A DNA stretch of 32,000 nucleotides from Edaphobacter aggregans. GTDB taxonomy: Bacteria; Acidobacteriota; Terriglobia; Terriglobales; Acidobacteriaceae. Below the pieces are notes generated by a model that worked only from the letters and a program-made list of their open reading frames with translations, did no database searches and was not told the origin of the DNA. The position numbers and the translations under genes were made by a program. Positions 9,846 to 30,529 of the stretch are shown in pieces (positions within the stretch are counted from its first letter, which is position 1; the number at the start of each line of letters is the position of its first letter). The DNA lies in assembly GCF_003945235.1 (NCBI RefSeq), contig NZ_RSDW01000001.1:2850001-2882000 (forward strand), written 5' to 3'.

Positions 9846-10328
9846 CTATCGTTCTTTTGTTTGCTGAATCGCCTCCGTCTGCCGCCGCATCATCTCGATG
9901 CAGCGCTCACAGAAGTCCTTGATCGTCTCGAGCTCGCGCATGGAGTACCGCGTAATCATCTGCGCCGACTCGCGTCCTAACGCCTCATAGAATGGCGCGA
10001 TGCGGGCCATCGCCGGGGAATGACATAACCGGATGAACACCTTCCGCCGATCTGTTTCGCTCCGCTCTCTCCGCGCCAGTCCAGCCTTCTCCAGCCGGTC
10101 GATTGCCGCGGTGATGGCCCCTGTCGTTAGCCCTGTCAGTCTTGCCAGATCGCCCGCCGTAACGTCGCCCACGCGGTCGACATAATCCAGACATTTCAGG
10201 TCCGTCACCGATACGCCTGCGAGGTTAGCAATCGCCTGATGAAACAGAACACCCCGCGCGCCCAGCTCCCGCCCGAGCTGAAAGCCGACGATGTGCTCCA
10301 ATTCTTTTCGCTTGCTCGATGGTGCCAT
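9846..10328 (-). CDS. MarR family transcriptional regulator
   Basis: Winged-HTH block VTAGDLARLTGLTTGAITAAIDRLEKAGLARRERSETDRRKVFIRL is typical of MarR. Divergent from the monooxygenase gene. Confidence 0.9.
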   Translation of the reverse strand: MAPSSKRKELEHIVGFQLGRELGARGVLFHQAIANLAGVSVTDLKCLDYVDRVGDVTAGDLARLTGLTTGAITAAIDRLEKAGLARRERSETDRRKVFIRLCHSPAMARIAPFYEALGRESAQMITRYSMRELETIKDFCERCIEMMRRQTEAIQQTKER

Positions 10329-10344
10329 TCTGTTTACAGTATCA

Positions 10345-10365
10345 TTATCTCAATAATTGAGATAA
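10345..10365. promoter_or_regulatory. Perfect 10-1-10 palindrome TTATCTCAAT-A-ATTGAGATAA, a candidate MarR operator
   Basis: Read directly. It lies in the AT-rich 52-nt divergent intergenic region, 17 nt from the marR start and 16 nt from the monooxygenase ORF start. Assigning it to MarR is an inference. Confidence 0.5.
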
Positions 10366-10380
10366 TTAATAATCGAGGTA

Positions 10381-11643
10381 TTGGCCATGTCCATCCATCG
10401 GAAACGCGCTCTCATCATTGGAGGAGGAGTCGCAGGTCCCGTCCTCGCTCTCTTCCTCAAGTCGTCCGACTTCGATACCCAGATCTTCGAAGCCTCCAGC
10501 GGCCCAAGCGATACAGGCGGAGCGCTCGGCCTCGCTCCCAATGGCATGAACGTCCTCGCCGCTGCCGGTGTCGTCGAACAGGTTCGCGACGTCAGCGTCA
10601 CCGGCAACGAGTGGGCCTTCGAAAATCAGCGCGGCAAACTCCTCGCCTGTGCGCCCGCTGGAGACACCGCCCGGTACGGCCAGCCTCCTGTCATGATCAC
10701 CCGCGCCGCACTTCATCGCGCCATCATCGAGCACGCCGAGGCACAAGACATCCCCGTTCACTACAACAAGCGTCTCGTCAGCATCGATGACATTCCCGGC
10801 CATCCCATCGTCGCGCACTTCGCTGACGGGACTGTTGCCGAAGGCGACTTCATCGTCGGCGCCGACGGCATCCGTTCGCAGGTCCGCCAGGCCGTTATGC
10901 CCGATGCGCCCAAACCCTCTTACACCGGCATGATGGCTCCCGGCGGCTTCAGCCCCTGCATCGACACGGGTGTCACCCCGCGCTCCAATCAGCGTGTCCA
11001 CTTCATCTTTGGCCAGAACGGCTTCTTCGGCTACTTCAATACCGTCACACCCGAAGGTCCGCGCACATTATGGTGGAGCACAGCCTCCGCGCCGCTCGAG
11101 AGCAAGGACAAGATGGCTGCCACCACCAAAGCCGAGCTGCAGCAACGCCTGCTCGCTCTCCACGGCGACTGGGCCGACCCCGTCCCTCAACTTATCCAGT
11201 CCGCAACCGACATCCTCAACATCCCCATTCACGACGTCCCCAGCCTTCCTCGCTGGAGCGCCGGTCGCACCATCCTCATCGGCGACGCCGCGCACGCCGT
11301 GGCTCCGCACTCCGGCCAGGGAGCTTCGATGGCCCTTGAAGACACCATGTATCTCGGCAAACTACTCTGCGAATCGGACGGCGAGCACCTCGAAAAAGTC
11401 TTCGTCGACTTCGAGCAGCATCGACGTCCCCGCACTGACAAAGTCATCGCCCTTGGCCGCCGCAACGGCCAGCGAAAAGAGAAAATGTCACCGGTCGAAT
11501 TCTGGATACAGCAGCAGATGATTCGCCTCTTCGTCCCGCTAACCCGCGCGAAGAAGCAGGACTGGCTGCTCGCCTACAAGGTCGAGTGGGATCGGGCTGT
11601 TCCAGCTATGTCTGCGCGTACCCGCTCCATGGTTGCGAGATAG
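10381..11643 (+). CDS. FAD-dependent aromatic-ring monooxygenase/hydroxylase family protein
   Basis: GxGxxG (ALIIGGGVAGPVLALFL), DG motif (GADGIRSQVR) and GD motif (LIGDAAHAVAPHSGQGASMALED). The start may be ATG 10387. Confidence 0.9.
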   Translation: MAMSIHRKRALIIGGGVAGPVLALFLKSSDFDTQIFEASSGPSDTGGALGLAPNGMNVLAAAGVVEQVRDVSVTGNEWAFENQRGKLLACAPAGDTARYGQPPVMITRAALHRAIIEHAEAQDIPVHYNKRLVSIDDIPGHPIVAHFADGTVAEGDFIVGADGIRSQVRQAVMPDAPKPSYTGMMAPGGFSPCIDTGVTPRSNQRVHFIFGQNGFFGYFNTVTPEGPRTLWWSTASAPLESKDKMAATTKAELQQRLLALHGDWADPVPQLIQSATDILNIPIHDVPSLPRWSAGRTILIGDAAHAVAPHSGQGASMALEDTMYLGKLLCESDGEHLEKVFVDFEQHRRPRTDKVIALGRRNGQRKEKMSPVEFWIQQQMIRLFVPLTRAKKQDWLLAYKVEWDRAVPAMSARTRSMVAR

Positions 11644-24847: not shown

Positions 24848-25168
24848 GCGTCTACCTCCTGCGCCACACCTACAACAAGCAATTCAAACACCACAGATCA
24901 AAGCCCAAAAGCCCATAATTATCATCACTTTTCACAAATCCACCGAAAACAAAACTGTCCATCGCCGAGCACAACCGTCCACTTCCGAACAAAAGTGACA
25001 CCTATCCAGCGTTTCTGGAATGATCGAAGGCTTCTACCTATTCAAAACGTCCACCACCGTCATCTTCAGCCCAACCACCTACTCCCAGACTTAGTACTCC
25101 GCCGAATGCTGCCGGGGAGCCTTGCGCAGCGTAGATTACAATCAAAACGCTTAGACGGGCTTACAAAC

Positions 25169-27523
25169 ATGAGATCGCGTTTGCAAGGCGGTTTGCTCGC
25201 TGCAGTCGCAATGTTTCTCGCGACCGGGGCAGTGTGTGCCTACGCACAGACGCCCCGAAAGGCTGCAGAAAAGTGGCAAATCGATGGCATAGTCGCTGCC
25301 CTAAAAGATCCTATCTTGGAAGTCAGGACACACGCCTTGCTATATGTTCAATCCAACTCAGAATTTACATGGGATGGCGTTCCTGACCCTCTAATCGCCT
25401 CTCTTCTAAATGATCCTAATGTTCGGCGGGTTATTTCTTCTCTAAAAGCGAACGACGACAACGTTCAAAGTGGAACCGATACGGCAGCAGACATAACGAT
25501 GCCTCGAAGTCAGGATGATCAAATCGCACTGCTCGAAAATCAAAATGTAAGCTTTGCTGTTCGAAAGGCCGTCGCATTGGTCCTCTGTACAACCCCTTCA
25601 CCCCAAGAGGAACATGCACTTATCACCCAACTCAGAGTCAAACAGCTTCGATCTGTCCTCGTAAAATCCCTTGTCGTACATGGACCCTTAAATTTTAAGA
25701 CGCTGCCCGATCTTACCTACCCCTTTTACTATTCTTACGAAGATTTACCGGAATATCGTTTTCTGATTCACTACCTCTTGGGTGGAAATGATAAAGCCGA
25801 ATTAGTGTTAAAACACACATTTTTCGAGGAGGGCGAGGATAAGGTAAAGGCCGCCGATTATTCAGACATAGATGATGCGCGTAAAGCTCTCGAAGCCTTT
25901 GACGCCGTTCTCCCAATCAACACGAGGAACACGGGTTTTCAGGCCGAAATTGAGAAACAGATACTTTTTATTGCACATAAATGGAAAGATGAATGGACTT
26001 CGAAAGACTATGAACTACTAAACTCACTTTCATTCAAAATGAATGAAGATTCTCGGGCTGCTCTTAATAACATCATCAAACAACCTTATTGGACACGCCT
26101 CCTTCAAAAATTGTGGAAAGTTATTGCGGTTCAGATCGCCTTTTGGATACTGCTCCTATATTTCTATCCCAGATCGAGGGCCGTCCAGGCATTCTTTTTC
26201 TGGAACCGTTGGGCACGCAAGTTCTTCGGTTTGGGATATGTCGATCTTTGTTTGACCTGGATTCCTTACTTGCGAAATCGCTTGCTCGGTCCCTTCCGCG
26301 AGGAGCTTGTAGCGGAGGCCCGTGTCTCAGACGAAGATTTGAACGACTATTTCCATGACATCGAAGTAAGGCAAGGTGAGAGTCACATTTCGCTCTTCCA
26401 CGCAATTCCTGAGATCTTTGGCCAAAGCATTCTGGAAAGTGAATCTGGTCTTGGAAAATCGATCTTCTTGCGTCGCCTCGTAAGCATGTCGAAACGGACA
26501 AACGCCTACTTGGCTGCAGAAAACTGTGATCGGGGCGTCTTCGAACTGATTCAGTTGAAGCTTAAAGGCAAAGCCAGCGATGAGACCTTTCTCCGTAGCA
26601 TCATTTGGGCTGGTGGTCTCAGCATCGTCATCGATGGATTGAATGAGGTTACCGTAGAAACACGCGAGAAGATCCGCCGCTTCGTCGACGACTTCCCAAA
26701 AGCTAATATCCTCTTAGCGACACAACCCCTGTTTTGGAAACGACCTCCCAAAGCACTGGTCTTTCGTATCTCGCCTCTTACTGACGATCGCATCCAGGCC
26801 TTCCTTGAAAGCAGATATAGGACATTTGTTTCGCCGCTCATCATGACAGAAAGCGCATATAAGCAAAGATGCCGAGACTATCTCGAAGACGTCCTCGGTA
26901 ATTGCCAGTCCGAAGAAGACAAAACAGCAGCACGGTTGGTCCTTTCAAATCCTATGGACCTTACCGTTGCCGCTCAAATTTTGGTTGCCGGTGACACTCC
27001 TACTCTTAGAAATCTGCAAGAGCAACAATTCACGCGCGTCGATCGAGACTTCCGGGATATTCGCCACGGCGAGCAGTTTCCCCTCCGGCAATTTTCCGAA
27101 AGTGTTTATGAAAGGCTTCTGGGCGACGAGATCACGCTCGACAGCTCTCAGTTCTTTGAAGCTATCCAGGTACTTTCATCTCACAAAATGGTCCTGATGC
27201 AGAATGAAATTGATGCCGATCAAAGACCTGTCAGGAGATGGGTCTTCCGCCACGATAAAATACGAGATTTCTTTTTGGTAAAAGCCTTCGAAAACGACCA
27301 CGGTAACCGAATTGGAGAGCATATAGAAGATCCACGATTCCGCGGCGTCTACCTTATGCTCGCCTCACAACTGCCCCTCGCCGAAGCCAATGAATTGAGA
27401 GACGCCCTCGTCGATCGTGCGGCAGAGACGAAGGACCACCATCTATCGGATGCCGTTGTTGAAGTCCTCAAAAGCAGACGGGTGGCAGGCTCAAGGCCAG
27501 TCACCCAAAGAACTCCAGCCTGA
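25169..27523 (+). CDS. Membrane-anchored NACHT/STAND-like P-loop NTPase with an N-terminal HEAT-like repeat domain
   Basis: The ORF 24995..27523 starts at GTG. ATG 25169 (MRSRLQGGLLAAVAMFLATGAVCAYAQ) gives a signal/anchor. HEAT-like repeats: ALKDPILEVRTHALLYV, LLNDPNVRRVISSL, LENQNVSFAVRKAVALVL. Hydrophobic block VIAVQIAFWILLLYFY...FFGLGYVDLCLTWIPYL. Walker A ESGLGKS (26447..26461), Walker B SIVIDGLNE (26624..26647), then ISPLTDDRIQAFL. Atypical low GC and codon usage. Confidence 0.75.
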   Translation: MRSRLQGGLLAAVAMFLATGAVCAYAQTPRKAAEKWQIDGIVAALKDPILEVRTHALLYVQSNSEFTWDGVPDPLIASLLNDPNVRRVISSLKANDDNVQSGTDTAADITMPRSQDDQIALLENQNVSFAVRKAVALVLCTTPSPQEEHALITQLRVKQLRSVLVKSLVVHGPLNFKTLPDLTYPFYYSYEDLPEYRFLIHYLLGGNDKAELVLKHTFFEEGEDKVKAADYSDIDDARKALEAFDAVLPINTRNTGFQAEIEKQILFIAHKWKDEWTSKDYELLNSLSFKMNEDSRAALNNIIKQPYWTRLLQKLWKVIAVQIAFWILLLYFYPRSRAVQAFFFWNRWARKFFGLGYVDLCLTWIPYLRNRLLGPFREELVAEARVSDEDLNDYFHDIEVRQGESHISLFHAIPEIFGQSILESESGLGKSIFLRRLVSMSKRTNAYLAAENCDRGVFELIQLKLKGKASDETFLRSIIWAGGLSIVIDGLNEVTVETREKIRRFVDDFPKANILLATQPLFWKRPPKALVFRISPLTDDRIQAFLESRYRTFVSPLIMTESAYKQRCRDYLEDVLGNCQSEEDKTAARLVLSNPMDLTVAAQILVAGDTPTLRNLQEQQFTRVDRDFRDIRHGEQFPLRQFSESVYERLLGDEITLDSSQFFEAIQVLSSHKMVLMQNEIDADQRPVRRWVFRHDKIRDFFLVKAFENDHGNRIGEHIEDPRFRGVYLMLASQLPLAEANELRDALVDRAAETKDHHLSDAVVEVLKSRRVAGSRPVTQRTPA

Positions 27524-27557
27524 GCATCTCCCTTGCCATTCAGGGCCGGTCACCTTT

Positions 27558-27579
27558 CGTCGCGAGCTTCTTCGCGATG
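27558..27579 (+). terminator. Hairpin (CGTCGCGA-GCTTCT-TCGCGATG) 35 nt after the NTPase stop; possible terminator
   Basis: 8-bp stem including one G-U pair, read directly. The trailing sequence is only weakly U-rich (ttctattct), so the call is weak. Confidence 0.3.
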
Positions 27580-27681
27580 AGTAGGTTCTATTCTGCCCGG
27601 GGTGAAGGCGAAGTCGTAAACGACTGAATTAACTTCCTATCCCCATAACATTCCAACCAAACCATCTATAAATCAGGCGCC

Positions 27682-28323: not shown

Positions 28324-29238
28324 TTAGGCATGCAGAGGCTGCAAATGTCTCTTAACCCGTTCCGGTTCAGGCACTTCGTCGTACCCATGCGCCAGCTCCC
28401 AGGCCGACCGGTCACGCAGCAACCGCTGCACCAGAGCCGTATGCATCGCATGGCCCGCCCTCTCAGCCACCACCCGCCCTTGGATCCGCCGCCCCGCTAG
28501 CGCCAGATCCCCAATCAAATCAAGCACTTTGTGTCGGACAAACTCATCCGGAAAACGAAGAGGCCCATTTTCAACGCCCTGCCGCGAAAGAATAATGGCA
28601 CTCTCATTCGAAACCCCGCGAATCAAGCCCATATCCCGCAACATAGCCTCATCTTCCTTGAATCCAAAAGTCCGCGCCGGAGCAATCTGTTCCACATAAT
28701 CCCCCACCGCGAGATCCCCGGTAAACATCTCATATCCAATAGGTTGCGGAAAATCAATCGTGTACCGTATCCCATACCCCGACCCCGGATACACCCCAAT
28801 AAACTTCGATCCGTCCCGAACCTCAACTTCCTTCAGAATCTTGATATACTCCCGCCGCCGCCTCTGCTGCTTAAGCCCAACAGAATGAAATGCTTGTACA
28901 TAAGGAAAGGCGCTTCCGTCGAGGATGGGAATCTCAAGATTATCCACCTCAACGATGACGTTATCCACCCCATACCCAATCAACGCCGAAAGCAAATGTT
29001 CCGTCGTAGAAATCAGGACACTACCCCGCATCAGGCTGGTAGCATAACTGACTTTCGCGACATTGCGTCCAATCGCAGGAATCTCAAAATTGTCTAAGTC
29101 TATGCGCCTGAACACGATACCCGATCCTGCCGGAGCCGGGACCAATCGCATCGAAACCGGAGCCCCACTGTGCAGGCCAACACCGCTAAACTCTATCTCA
29201 GACCGAATTGTCCGCTCAAAATGGGCTTCCAGTCCCAC
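28324..29238 (-). CDS. lpxC: UDP-3-O-acyl-N-acetylglucosamine deacetylase
   Basis: FSGVGLHSG, TTEHLLSAL and HKVLDLIGDL are conserved LpxC catalytic blocks. GTG start at 29238. Confidence 0.95.
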   Translation of the reverse strand: MGLEAHFERTIRSEIEFSGVGLHSGAPVSMRLVPAPAGSGIVFRRIDLDNFEIPAIGRNVAKVSYATSLMRGSVLISTTEHLLSALIGYGVDNVIVEVDNLEIPILDGSAFPYVQAFHSVGLKQQRRRREYIKILKEVEVRDGSKFIGVYPGSGYGIRYTIDFPQPIGYEMFTGDLAVGDYVEQIAPARTFGFKEDEAMLRDMGLIRGVSNESAIILSRQGVENGPLRFPDEFVRHKVLDLIGDLALAGRRIQGRVVAERAGHAMHTALVQRLLRDRSAWELAHGYDEVPEPERVKRHLQPLHA

Positions 29239-29392
29239 GAATCAACGTCTCCCACAGGTGCCATCCTTAAAATTACAGTCTGGTAAGCATCCGTCGATGT
29301 GGTAAATTCACCACACTTTGTCGGCAAGATCGTTCACTTTTGCGCCTTGGTGAACCTAGCAATAAACCTTTTTACGCCTATAACATGCATCT

Positions 29393-30529
29393 ATGAACAC
29401 CAAAACTATTCTCCCTGCAGTCGAAACCCGGCGTGAATGGATACGAAACAGCCTCAAAGAACTTGTGCTGCAAGAATCGCCAAGTGAAGACATAAATGCA
29501 GTTAACGCTGCATCGGCAATTGTGGAGCGTCTAGCTCGTGGGATGGGGGGGCGTGTCAGGCGGAATAAACAAAAAAAATTTGGGGACGTCGTCGAACTGC
29601 GCTTCGGTCCTGCACGTTCGGGGCGTAAACCCATTCTTTTACTTGGACATATGGATACGGTGTGGCCGATAGGCACGCTGAAAGAGATGCCTTGGCGGGA
29701 GGAAAAAGGGAAATTTTTTGGGCCTGGTGTGCTGGATATGAAAGCCGGAGTTGTGATGGCTCTCGCGGCCGTAAGTACCTTGAAAGAGTTGAAGTTAGAT
29801 CGACCGGTTACCTTGCTTTTAAATAGTGAGGAGGAGGTGGGGAGTCCGGTTTCTCGGGTGATTACGGAGCGGTTGGCGCAGGAATCGGCGGCGGTTTTTG
29901 TTTTGGAACCGGCTCAGGGTCTTGCTTACAAGACGGCTCGGAAGGGCGTAGGCCATTATAATGTGCAGGTTACGGGTGTTGGAGCTCATGCCGGGGTGGA
30001 CTTTGAGAAGGGGCATTCTGCGATTCTAGAGCTGGCTAAACAGATCCAGACCATCTCTGGCTTCGTCAATTTCGCACGGCAGCTGACGGTCAACTGTGGT
30101 GTTATTGGTGGAGGAACGCGGTCAAATGTCGTCGCTTCCGAGGCGCACACCGAGGTGGATGTGCGAATATCGAAGGCCCGTGATGAGGCTTATATCCAAA
30201 AGCTGTTCGACGGACTGAGGGTCTCAGACCGGCACTGCAAGCTGACCATTACAGGCGGTATCAACCGGCCTCCCATGGAGCGGAAGGCTGGGACGATTGC
30301 GCTGTTCAAGCAGGCTCGCAGGCTGGCTGCGGAGCTGGGTTTTGAGCTTGACGAGGCGGCTACGGGGGGTGGGTCGGATGGGAACTTCACGGCTGCGCTT
30401 GGGGTGCCTACGCTCGATGGAATGGGGGCAGTAGGAGAGGGGGCTCATGCGGCGCATGAGTCGGTCGTGATTGAGCACCTGGTGCCGCGGACGGCTCTGC
30501 TGGCGGCGATGATTGCGAGTGTGGATTAG
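29393..30529 (+). CDS. M20 family metallopeptidase (carboxypeptidase G2 / glutamate carboxypeptidase-like)
   Basis: LLLGHMDTVWP, GPGVLDMKAG and LLNSEEEVGSP metal-ligand blocks. Codons are strongly G/T-ending, unlike plus-strand genes further left. Confidence 0.85.
   Translation: MNTKTILPAVETRREWIRNSLKELVLQESPSEDINAVNAASAIVERLARGMGGRVRRNKQKKFGDVVELRFGPARSGRKPILLLGHMDTVWPIGTLKEMPWREEKGKFFGPGVLDMKAGVVMALAAVSTLKELKLDRPVTLLLNSEEEVGSPVSRVITERLAQESAAVFVLEPAQGLAYKTARKGVGHYNVQVTGVGAHAGVDFEKGHSAILELAKQIQTISGFVNFARQLTVNCGVIGGGTRSNVVASEAHTEVDVRISKARDEAYIQKLFDGLRVSDRHCKLTITGGINRPPMERKAGTIALFKQARRLAAELGFELDEAATGGGSDGNFTAALGVPTLDGMGAVGEGAHAAHESVVIEHLVPRTALLAAMIASVD

Follow-up and report, generated by a model that had tools for sequence, protein, structure and literature searches.

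Animals, plants, fungi and bacteria have immune receptors of the NLR/STAND type, and these are regarded as sensing inside the cell. Among the bacterial ones, the bNACHT proteins (Kibby et al., 10.1101/2022.07.19.500537) are NACHT-type STAND proteins encoded by single genes, which combine repeat sensors with effector or adaptor domains of various kinds (TIR, EADs), and their authors suggested that some bNACHTs with transmembrane (TM) regions may sense intramembrane or periplasmic signals (10.1101/2022.07.19.500537). The Avs (AVAST) proteins are also single-gene STAND pattern-recognition receptors with swappable effector domains (PMC13581612). A third group is the MNS clade or “Npun2340/2341 family” (Leipe et al. 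2004, cited in PMC8195603), a cyanobacteria-rich STAND group of counter-invader systems with EAD-type adaptors. Here we describe a gene of Edaphobacter aggregans, located within 24848-27681 of a 32,000-nucleotide (nt) window, which is the whole stretch of contig NZ_RSDW01000001.1 that was analysed. The gene belongs to a large family that shares with bNACHT and Avs proteins the single-gene STAND plan, repeat sensors and exchangeable output domains. With moderate confidence, we read its product as a single-pass type I membrane protein acting as an outside-in NLR-like receptor of a NACHT-like STAND family, probably in conflict or defence.

The region 24848-27681 consists of the focal gene and the intergenic spacers on either side. 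The open reading frame (ORF) extends over 24995..27523 on the forward strand and opens at a GTG at 24995, while its first ATG at 25169 leads to the product of 784 amino acids (aa) given by the original prediction, a model's reading of the DNA letters. The parts of the gene are as follows, with residue numbers of the 784-aa product.

25169..27523, forward strand: focal gene, 784 aa, identical to RSL16922.1 / WP_148103876.1, “hypothetical protein” of Edaphobacter aggregans
25169..25246, forward strand: predicted Sec-type signal peptide, residues 1-26, MRSRLQGGLLAAVAMFLATGAVCAYA, with a two-Arg n-region, a hydrophobic core and a probable cleavage site between AYA and Q
25274..25678, forward strand: remnant of a putative extracytoplasmic repeat array, residues ~36-170, starting with the family motif WQIDGIVAALKD and followed by 2-3 degenerate HEAT-like helical hairpins
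25679..26101, forward strand: family-specific all-helical juxtamembrane domain, residues ~171-311, with a conserved YY..RFL.YYL.GG motif
26102..26170, forward strand: predicted single transmembrane helix, residues 312-334, LQKLWKVIAVQIAFWILLLYFYP
26171..26281, forward strand: most conserved stretch of the family, residues 335-371, made of a basic loop RSRAVQAFFFWNRWARK and a 17-aa uncharged hydrophobic segment FFGLGYVDLCLTWIPYL
26282..27490, forward strand: NACHT-like STAND module, residues 372-774, with nucleotide-binding domain, helical domain 1, winged helix and C-terminal helical domain
26438..26461, forward strand: Walker A, residues 424-431, SESGLGKS, in which the first Gly of GxxxxGKS is Ser (codon AGT)
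26621..26647, forward strand: Walker B, residues 485-493, SIVIDGLNE, of the NACHT-typical hhhhDGhxE form
26945..26962, forward strand: SNPMDL, residues 593-598, nearly invariant in alignment A1 (see below)
27239..27274, forward strand: WVFRHDKIRDFF, residues 691-702, winged-helix motif with a conserved His as in NLRs

The C-terminal half is a NACHT-like STAND module, in a family that current Pfam models miss. For the comparisons we used two alignments, A1 with 54 full-length family sequences and A2 with the cytoplasmic part of 20 sequences. Taken alone, the focal protein gave no significant match in Pfam, where the sub-threshold NACHT match covers the P-loop alone and reaches 13-15 bits (the gathering threshold of PF05729 is 26.7 bits), no match in NCBIfam, 0 families of PADLOC-DB 2.0 at E <= 1, and no match in a single-sequence search of the PDB. 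The Pfam and PADLOC checks proposed in the original prediction thus gave no significant match for the focal protein. Searched as a profile, A2 matched NLRC4 in the PDB with E = 3e-4 over the span from Walker A to strand 4, and NLRP14 with E = 0.04 in the winged-helix region (profile positions 272-363). Pfam NACHT (PF05729) is the sole family matched by all A2 members (20 of 20), weakly, with a best E of 6.4e-6. An AlphaFold2 model built from A1 has a mean predicted local distance difference test (pLDDT) score of 86.7, and its Foldseek search placed NOD2, NLRP3 and NLRC4 at ranks 1-6: rabbit NOD2 (5irm) with E = 3.5e-6, the NLRP3 NACHT structure (7alv) with 445 columns and a TM-score of 0.54 on the target, and NLRC4 (4kxf). 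The plant NLR NRC3 stood at rank 37. A motor-type AAA+ or ORC-like ATPase was also considered and rejected, since ORC/Cdc6 and RFC clamp-loader AAA+ proteins rank below the NLRs and their superposition is much poorer. The profile match to NLRC4, the Foldseek matches and the weak NACHT signal in all A2 members bear out the NACHT/STAND NTPase that the original prediction had proposed.

The motif set of the family comprises GESGLGKS, IDGLNE, a TQP strand end, L.PL, SNPMDL and W.FRHDKI.DFF; D489, G490 and L491 of Walker B are invariant in A1, and ISPLTDDRIQAFL was read from the focal translation as a further motif of the ATPase region. The TSR motif of NACHT proteins has the sensor-1 arginine at the end of strand 4; at what may be the corresponding position, the family has an invariant Gln (T518-Q519-P). 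By our motif reading, SNPMDL may be the counterpart of the GxP motif of the STAND helical bundle. We compared the family with the STAND class as defined in Leipe et al. 2004. Among its motifs, Walker A (GxxxxGK[ST]) and the hhhhDGxxE form of Walker B, which has an extra acidic residue, are invariant or nearly so in the family. A helical bundle with a putative GxP-type motif is followed by a winged helix with the nearly invariant W.FRHDKI.DFF, and the nucleotide-binding domain, helical domain 1, winged-helix domain and helical domain 2 of NOD2, NLRP3 and NLRC4 can be superposed on the model. The architecture is multidomain, with HEAT, Peripla_BP_6 or CarboxypepD_reg domains at the N-terminus and, in a minority, TIR_2, EAD2 or EAD11 at the C-terminus. 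The closest structural neighbours in Foldseek are NACHT proteins, not NB-ARC or AAA+.

The N-terminal half points to a type I receptor layout, with a signal peptide, an N-terminal domain outside and one TM helix, as predicted from hydropathy, the positive-inside rule, c-region motifs and domain swaps, all of them heuristics. A simple heuristic finds a start resembling a signal peptide in 129 of 178 full-length members, and the N-termini of the family show a K/R n-region and AxA-like c-regions, e.g. VSA before K and AYA before Q. The mean net charge in the family changes from -0.3 before the helix to +3.2 after it. Besides, the HEAT array is swapped for Peripla_BP_6 in P0129 (E = 8e-37) and for CarboxypepD_reg β-sandwiches in P0023 (E = 8e-14), while a few other members have propeller-like repeats in its place, with weak matches only. 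These signal peptides, charge distribution and domain swaps support the membrane anchoring and the outside location that had been supposed for the N-terminal domain. The juxtamembrane domain (residues 165-312), when modelled alone by AlphaFold2, has a pLDDT of 85.6, and neither sequence nor fold searches of the PDB with it gave a significant match; it is therefore kept as a family-specific helical domain. In the stretch after the helix, the 17-aa segment (352-368) is uncharged, with a family mean hydropathy of 1.68, and has basic flanks (K+R means 3.2 and 3.6), and AlphaFold2 renders residues 335-371 as several short helices and no single membrane-spanning one. Because both flanks are basic and the modelled helices are short, we read this segment as probably interfacial or re-entrant on the cytoplasmic face.

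In a search of 1.84 billion representative proteins, the A2 profile matched 533 clusters at E <= 1e-30 and 1425 clusters at E <= 1e-3, so the family comprises at least 533 clusters at 50% identity. Where the source of a member is named, it is a filamentous cyanobacterium, a myxobacterium or an acidobacterium, the last group being the E. aggregans genome and, probably, its closest relatives from soil metagenomes. Additional copies are found on Calothrix and rhizobial plasmids, and a collection of phage genomes contained no homologue. The present annotation of the family is “HEAT repeat protein” or “hypothetical” only. Its common layout consists of a signal peptide, a WQI.GI.AAL.D motif, HEAT repeats in varying number, a helical domain of ~140 aa, the TM helix, the basic and hydrophobic segment and the NACHT-like module.

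Most of the variation is found at the two ends. Among 203 members with a complete module, the length before the helix ranges from <100 to >700 aa (<450 aa in 74 of them). HEAT arrays were matched in 166 of 189 homologues with a long N-region, with strong Pfam HEAT_2 matches. A Tolypothrix member contains a 105-nt unit in 9.1 copies with 87% DNA identity, which indicates recent amplification of the repeat, a process known from the repeat sensors of fungal NLRs (PMC4986451). C-terminal extensions of >60 aa occur in 22 of 203 members (~11%). Those above Pfam thresholds are TIR_2 in P0168 (E = 5.9e-14), EAD2 in P0214 (E = 7e-14) and EAD11 in P0161 and P0188 (E about 1e-14), with EAD11 recognised by eye in four more; the other extensions are a second ATPase, which is nSTAND1-like (weak), a cyclase-like domain (weak) and two types without assignment. 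EADs are adaptor domains of bacterial conflict systems (PMC7159879), and in multicellular bacteria the NTP-dependent conflict systems are typically marked by TIR domains and EAD adaptors (PMC7159879, PMC8195603). The conflict or defence role first proposed for the focal gene therefore gains indirect support from relatives with TIR_2, EAD2 and EAD11, and none from PADLOC, in which no model matched; the statement that the focal protein itself has no recognisable effector domain holds.

Of the tails without assignment, one is shared by P0125, P0163, P0198, P0201, P0203, P0212, P0217 and P0222 and comprises ~200 aa, in which a coiled coil precedes an alpha/beta domain; it has no match in Pfam. The second type, in the cyanobacterial P0116, P0135 and P0144, ends in a conserved LAEAAAEIQKLLKQLE...NPYVNVG...EGWQNP motif. 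Two members have altered ATPase regions. In P0091 (967 aa, metagenome) the C-terminal half of the ATPase is swapped for a tail resembling Uma2-family endonucleases, which may be a fusion or a disruption. P0024 (L090 8001-10960) has an apparent frameshift just after Walker B followed by low-complexity sequence, and the next ORF (10286-10960) resembles the remainder, as in a disrupted copy or an assembly error.

The E. aggregans copy differs from its relatives at two places. Its closest relative, P0002, is 64% identical to it; focal residues 1-94 align to P0002 1-94 and 119-784 to P0002 313-982, so that ~200 aa of HEAT array are missing, and the residues of low model confidence (95-107) coincide with the deletion scar. 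The Pfam HEAT models HEAT_2 and HEAT_PBS did not match the focal N-terminal part. Of the three HEAT-like repeats originally assigned to the protein, only degenerate remnants are thus present, while the homologues carry genuine long HEAT arrays. The other difference is G424S in Walker A, which is unique to the focal protein (Gly in 53 of 53 other aligned members) and is one of two family-conserved positions lost. Given the collapsed repeat array and G424S, the sensing of this variant copy may be altered or reduced. As a whole, however, the gene has not decayed, with 128 of 130 conserved positions kept.

The gene stands out from its surroundings in composition. Its content of guanine plus cytosine (GC) is 48.0%, and 48.9% at third codon positions (GC3), compared with a mean of 58.7% (standard deviation 2.0) in equal-sized windows not overlapping it (z = -5.3), and no window of its size within the 32 kb is lower. 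AGA, AGG, ATA, TTA and CTA together account for 51 per 1000 codons, compared with 17-32 in five neighbouring genes, and codons ending in A or T for 51%, compared with 26-43%. The low GC and the shift to rare codons noticed in the first reading are hence confirmed by computation. Low GC as a property of the whole family was considered and rejected, since homologues elsewhere deviate from their own flanks by only ~4 points, up or down; the deficit of ~10 points therefore indicates acquisition from a lower-GC donor. A second, milder dip (49-50% GC, 28501-29500) covers lpxC and the start of the M20 gene, whose synteny is kept in relatives, so that it is no sign of foreign origin. Near 29.5 kb the GC skew changes its sign where the coding strand switches.

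The gene is flanked by two spacers, with the following features.

24848..25168, forward strand: upstream intergenic spacer that separates the focal gene from the divergent ADOP permease gene, 321 nt, 49% GC, rich in A and C
27524..27681, forward strand: downstream spacer, 158 nt, 51% GC, ahead of the convergent folK

The upstream neighbour, on the opposite strand, is a duplicated MacB_PCD+FtsX permease of the ADOP type, and HPPK/folK, LpxC and an M20 peptidase follow downstream in this order; the family matches agree with the neighbours named in the original prediction. The promoter of the focal gene presumably lies in the upstream spacer, where a consensus scan of the upstream region gave a single weak sigma-70-like site (24995-25024), no better than chance. 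A scan of the downstream spacer gave no convincing intrinsic terminator. No tRNA was detected in the 32-kb window, the repeats around the gene were short and compatible with chance, neither flanking gene matched integrase or transposase families, and a tandem-repeat scan of the window gave nothing useful. The lack of a tRNA, flanking repeats and an integrase, stated earlier by eye, holds under these scans.

We compared the site with 80 LpxC-anchored loci of related Acidobacteriaceae (10 kb around lpxC). It turned out that none of them (0 of 80) carries a homologue of the focal gene within this distance, in agreement with its earlier description as a singleton, and that the M20-lpxC-folK order is conserved in the closest ~25. 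In the closest relatives (L004-L007), the genes at 18.5-20.1 kb of the window adjoin an inverted copy of the block at 32-27.7 kb (M20-lpxC-folK), which puts the PMT-like glycosyltransferase, the ADOP permease and the focal gene at a rearrangement (inversion or insertion) breakpoint in E. aggregans; of these three, only the focal gene has foreign composition. Compared with the usual picture of a horizontally acquired islet, the gene deviates in composition and is missing at the syntenic site of relatives, without marks of mobility (integrase, tRNA target, direct repeats). It provides a clear example of an accessory gene that E. aggregans obtained by horizontal transfer and that lies at a rearrangement breakpoint.

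The ten homologue contexts that we inspected are all different and contain mostly housekeeping genes. A conserved operon partner was rejected, as none appears in these ten contexts, with the exception of a rhizobial plasmid subfamily. Its members are ~1400 aa long (Mesorhizobium pOM4, L086 3805-8570; Rhizobium leguminosarum pRL10, L087 3901-8612), and each is overlapped downstream by a hypothetical gene of ~167 aa, so they may make up a subfamily of two-gene operons; on pRL10 the copy is flanked by IS21 and IS110 transposases. The tandem paralogues P0016 and P0015 (L001 6771-9845 and 10001-13246) share one contig from a soil metagenome, with BrnT/BrnA toxin-antitoxin genes and a small TIR-like gene ~5 kb downstream.

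The data show the fold, the family membership, the domain order, the composition and the missing synteny, and from them we propose the following mode of action, in which topology, direction of signalling, oligomerisation and biological role are inferences. Guided by the signal peptide, the N-terminal helical-repeat domain would reach the periplasm, a single helix would cross the inner membrane, the conserved basic and hydrophobic segment would lie on the cytoplasmic face, and the NACHT-like module would be in the cytoplasm. The periplasmic domain would be the sensor, formed by HEAT arrays in most members and by other extracytoplasmic binding domains in some, and a ligand signal would be relayed by the helix and the interfacial segment to the ATPase switch, which would exchange nucleotide and oligomerise like other NLR/STAND proteins. 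In some relatives the output would be the fused cytoplasmic TIR domain or an EAD adaptor recruiting effectors, while in effector-less members, such as the focal protein, it might be the clustered conserved membrane segment, through membrane damage, or a partner protein. Conflict or defence is the most likely role, directed against molecules of phage, toxin or competitor origin on their arrival in the periplasm. For the family as a whole, we put forward only tentatively a widespread class of bacterial NLR-like receptors, in which ligands would be sensed outside the cytoplasm, a cytoplasmic NACHT-type module would serve as the oligomerisation switch and, in the effector-less majority, the conserved membrane segment itself would be the death or alarm effector.

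Several points weigh against an outside-in receptor for conflict or defence. PADLOC and NCBIfam gave no match to the focal protein and Pfam none that is significant, and its presumed sensor array is largely deleted, with the first Walker A glycine replaced. The neighbourhoods of homologues are largely housekeeping, only two contigs having TIR, toxin-antitoxin or restriction-type neighbours, and no recognisable effector domain is present in most members, the focal protein included. The cyclase-like C-terminal fusion of P0186 (weak, Pfam E = 0.074) fits ordinary signalling equally well. Finally, the topology rests on heuristics, and it would be different if the membrane were crossed a second time by the 17-aa hydrophobic stretch that follows the helix, which is possible. 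Some of these points would suit an ordinary, non-immune transmembrane signal transducer, in which a periplasmic cue is relayed by the STAND switch to a housekeeping output, like MalT/AfsR-type regulators or sensor cyclases. It would account for the periplasmic solute-binding domain of P0129, the weak cyclase-like C-terminus, the housekeeping neighbours in Tolypothrix, Nostoc punctiforme, Corallococcus and acidobacterial contigs, the lack of a toxic effector domain in most members and the failure of PADLOC to match. However, it agrees poorly with the patchy distribution, the unconserved synteny and the foreign composition in E. aggregans, with the fusion of some members to TIR_2, EAD2 and EAD11, which are marks of conflict systems (PMC7159879), with repeat arrays that are quickly amplified and collapsed, and with plasmid-borne or IS-flanked copies; besides, neither a DNA-binding domain nor any other domain for a regulatory output was seen. 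We regard such a transducer as rather unlikely.

Another explanation concerns the focal copy only and is compatible with the family-level model, namely that it is a decaying or disabled relic of a horizontally acquired receptor with no important present role. The loss of ~200 aa of HEAT array relative to P0002, the remaining repeats without a HEAT model match, G424S (unique among 54 aligned members), the other disrupted copies (P0024 frameshifted, P0091 truncated or fused) and the poorly adapted codon usage would fit this. Yet the ORF of 784 codons is intact, the 128 of 130 conserved positions kept place it among the best scores of the family, and short N-regions are common (74 of 203 members with <450 aa before the helix). 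As for the glycine, the PROSITE P-loop pattern accepts A or G at the first position, and a small residue there may be tolerated. A relic is thus unlikely in our view. The protein might also be a membrane-tethered but wholly cytoplasmic NLR, in which the N-terminal stretch, helix 312-334 and segment 352-368 all span the membrane and both the repeats and the ATPase stay inside. In its favour, an ATPase has to be cytoplasmic, HEAT repeats are mostly known from cytoplasmic proteins, and segment 352-368 is uncharged, with a family mean hydropathy of 1.68 over 17 aa. But the N-terminal helix would then insert with its K/R-rich end outside, in violation of the positive-inside rule, and the N-terminus has signal-peptidase-type c-regions; both flanks of 352-368 are basic (K+R means 3.2 and 3.6), AlphaFold2 splits this segment into short helices, and periplasmic-type domains replace the repeats in some members. 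This arrangement is very unlikely, and the outside-in NLR-like receptor is the reading that we retain.

If this reading is true, the NLR principle would be extended to surveillance of the periplasm, the first arrival site of phage ejection proteins, bacteriocins, contact-dependent toxins and cell-wall fragments, and the topology of Toll-like receptors would be joined to the mechanics of NLRs. As the family is undetected by Pfam NACHT, NCBIfam and PADLOC, it is missed by censuses of defence systems. For experiments, the members that carry TIR or EAD tails are a direct way in.

In comparison with the known systems, the domain order is the main difference. In bNACHT proteins the sensors, HEAT included, are C-terminal, the effectors N-terminal and the TM regions multiple, whereas the present family has the reversed order of signal peptide, sensor, one TM helix, NACHT-like module and optional C-terminal effector. 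The searched part of bNACHT Table S1 contains no architecture of HEAT, TM and NACHT, and a signal peptide-HEAT-TM-NACHT architecture did not come up in our literature searches. The Avs proteins have C-terminal TPR-like sensors, by which they recognise phage proteins in the cytoplasm, with no extracytoplasmic sensor described (PMC13581612), and the focal protein has no sequence or PADLOC match to them. The Npun2340/2341 family resembles the present one in its cyanobacterial STAND proteins and EADs, and the two might be identical.

The animal NLRs NOD2, NLRP3 and NLRC4 (5irm, 7alv, 4kxf) are the best structural matches, over 445-519 aligned columns, and share the DGhxE Walker B and the winged-helix His. 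Their identity to the focal protein is 12-13%, they are cytosolic with C-terminal LRR sensors and N-terminal CARD or PYD domains, and the present family has the invariant Gln of TQP where the sensor-1 arginine of TSR would presumably be. Toll-like receptors are comparable by analogy only: P0168, with its solenoid repeats predicted outside, one TM helix and a cytoplasmic TIR, resembles the LRR-TM-TIR order, but a NACHT-like ATPase lies between helix and TIR, the repeats are HEAT and not LRR, homology is confined to the TIR domain, and the focal protein has no TIR. Bacterial TM sensors, such as histidine kinases, chemoreceptors and receptor cyclases, follow the same logic of periplasmic sensor, TM segment and transmitter, with swapped sensors including Peripla_BP_6; in the present family, by contrast, the transmitter is a STAND ATPase and not a kinase, methyl-accepting or cyclase module. 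In conclusion, the family is STAND by fold and motifs, falls outside Pfam NACHT by score, and has an inverted, membrane-spanning domain order.

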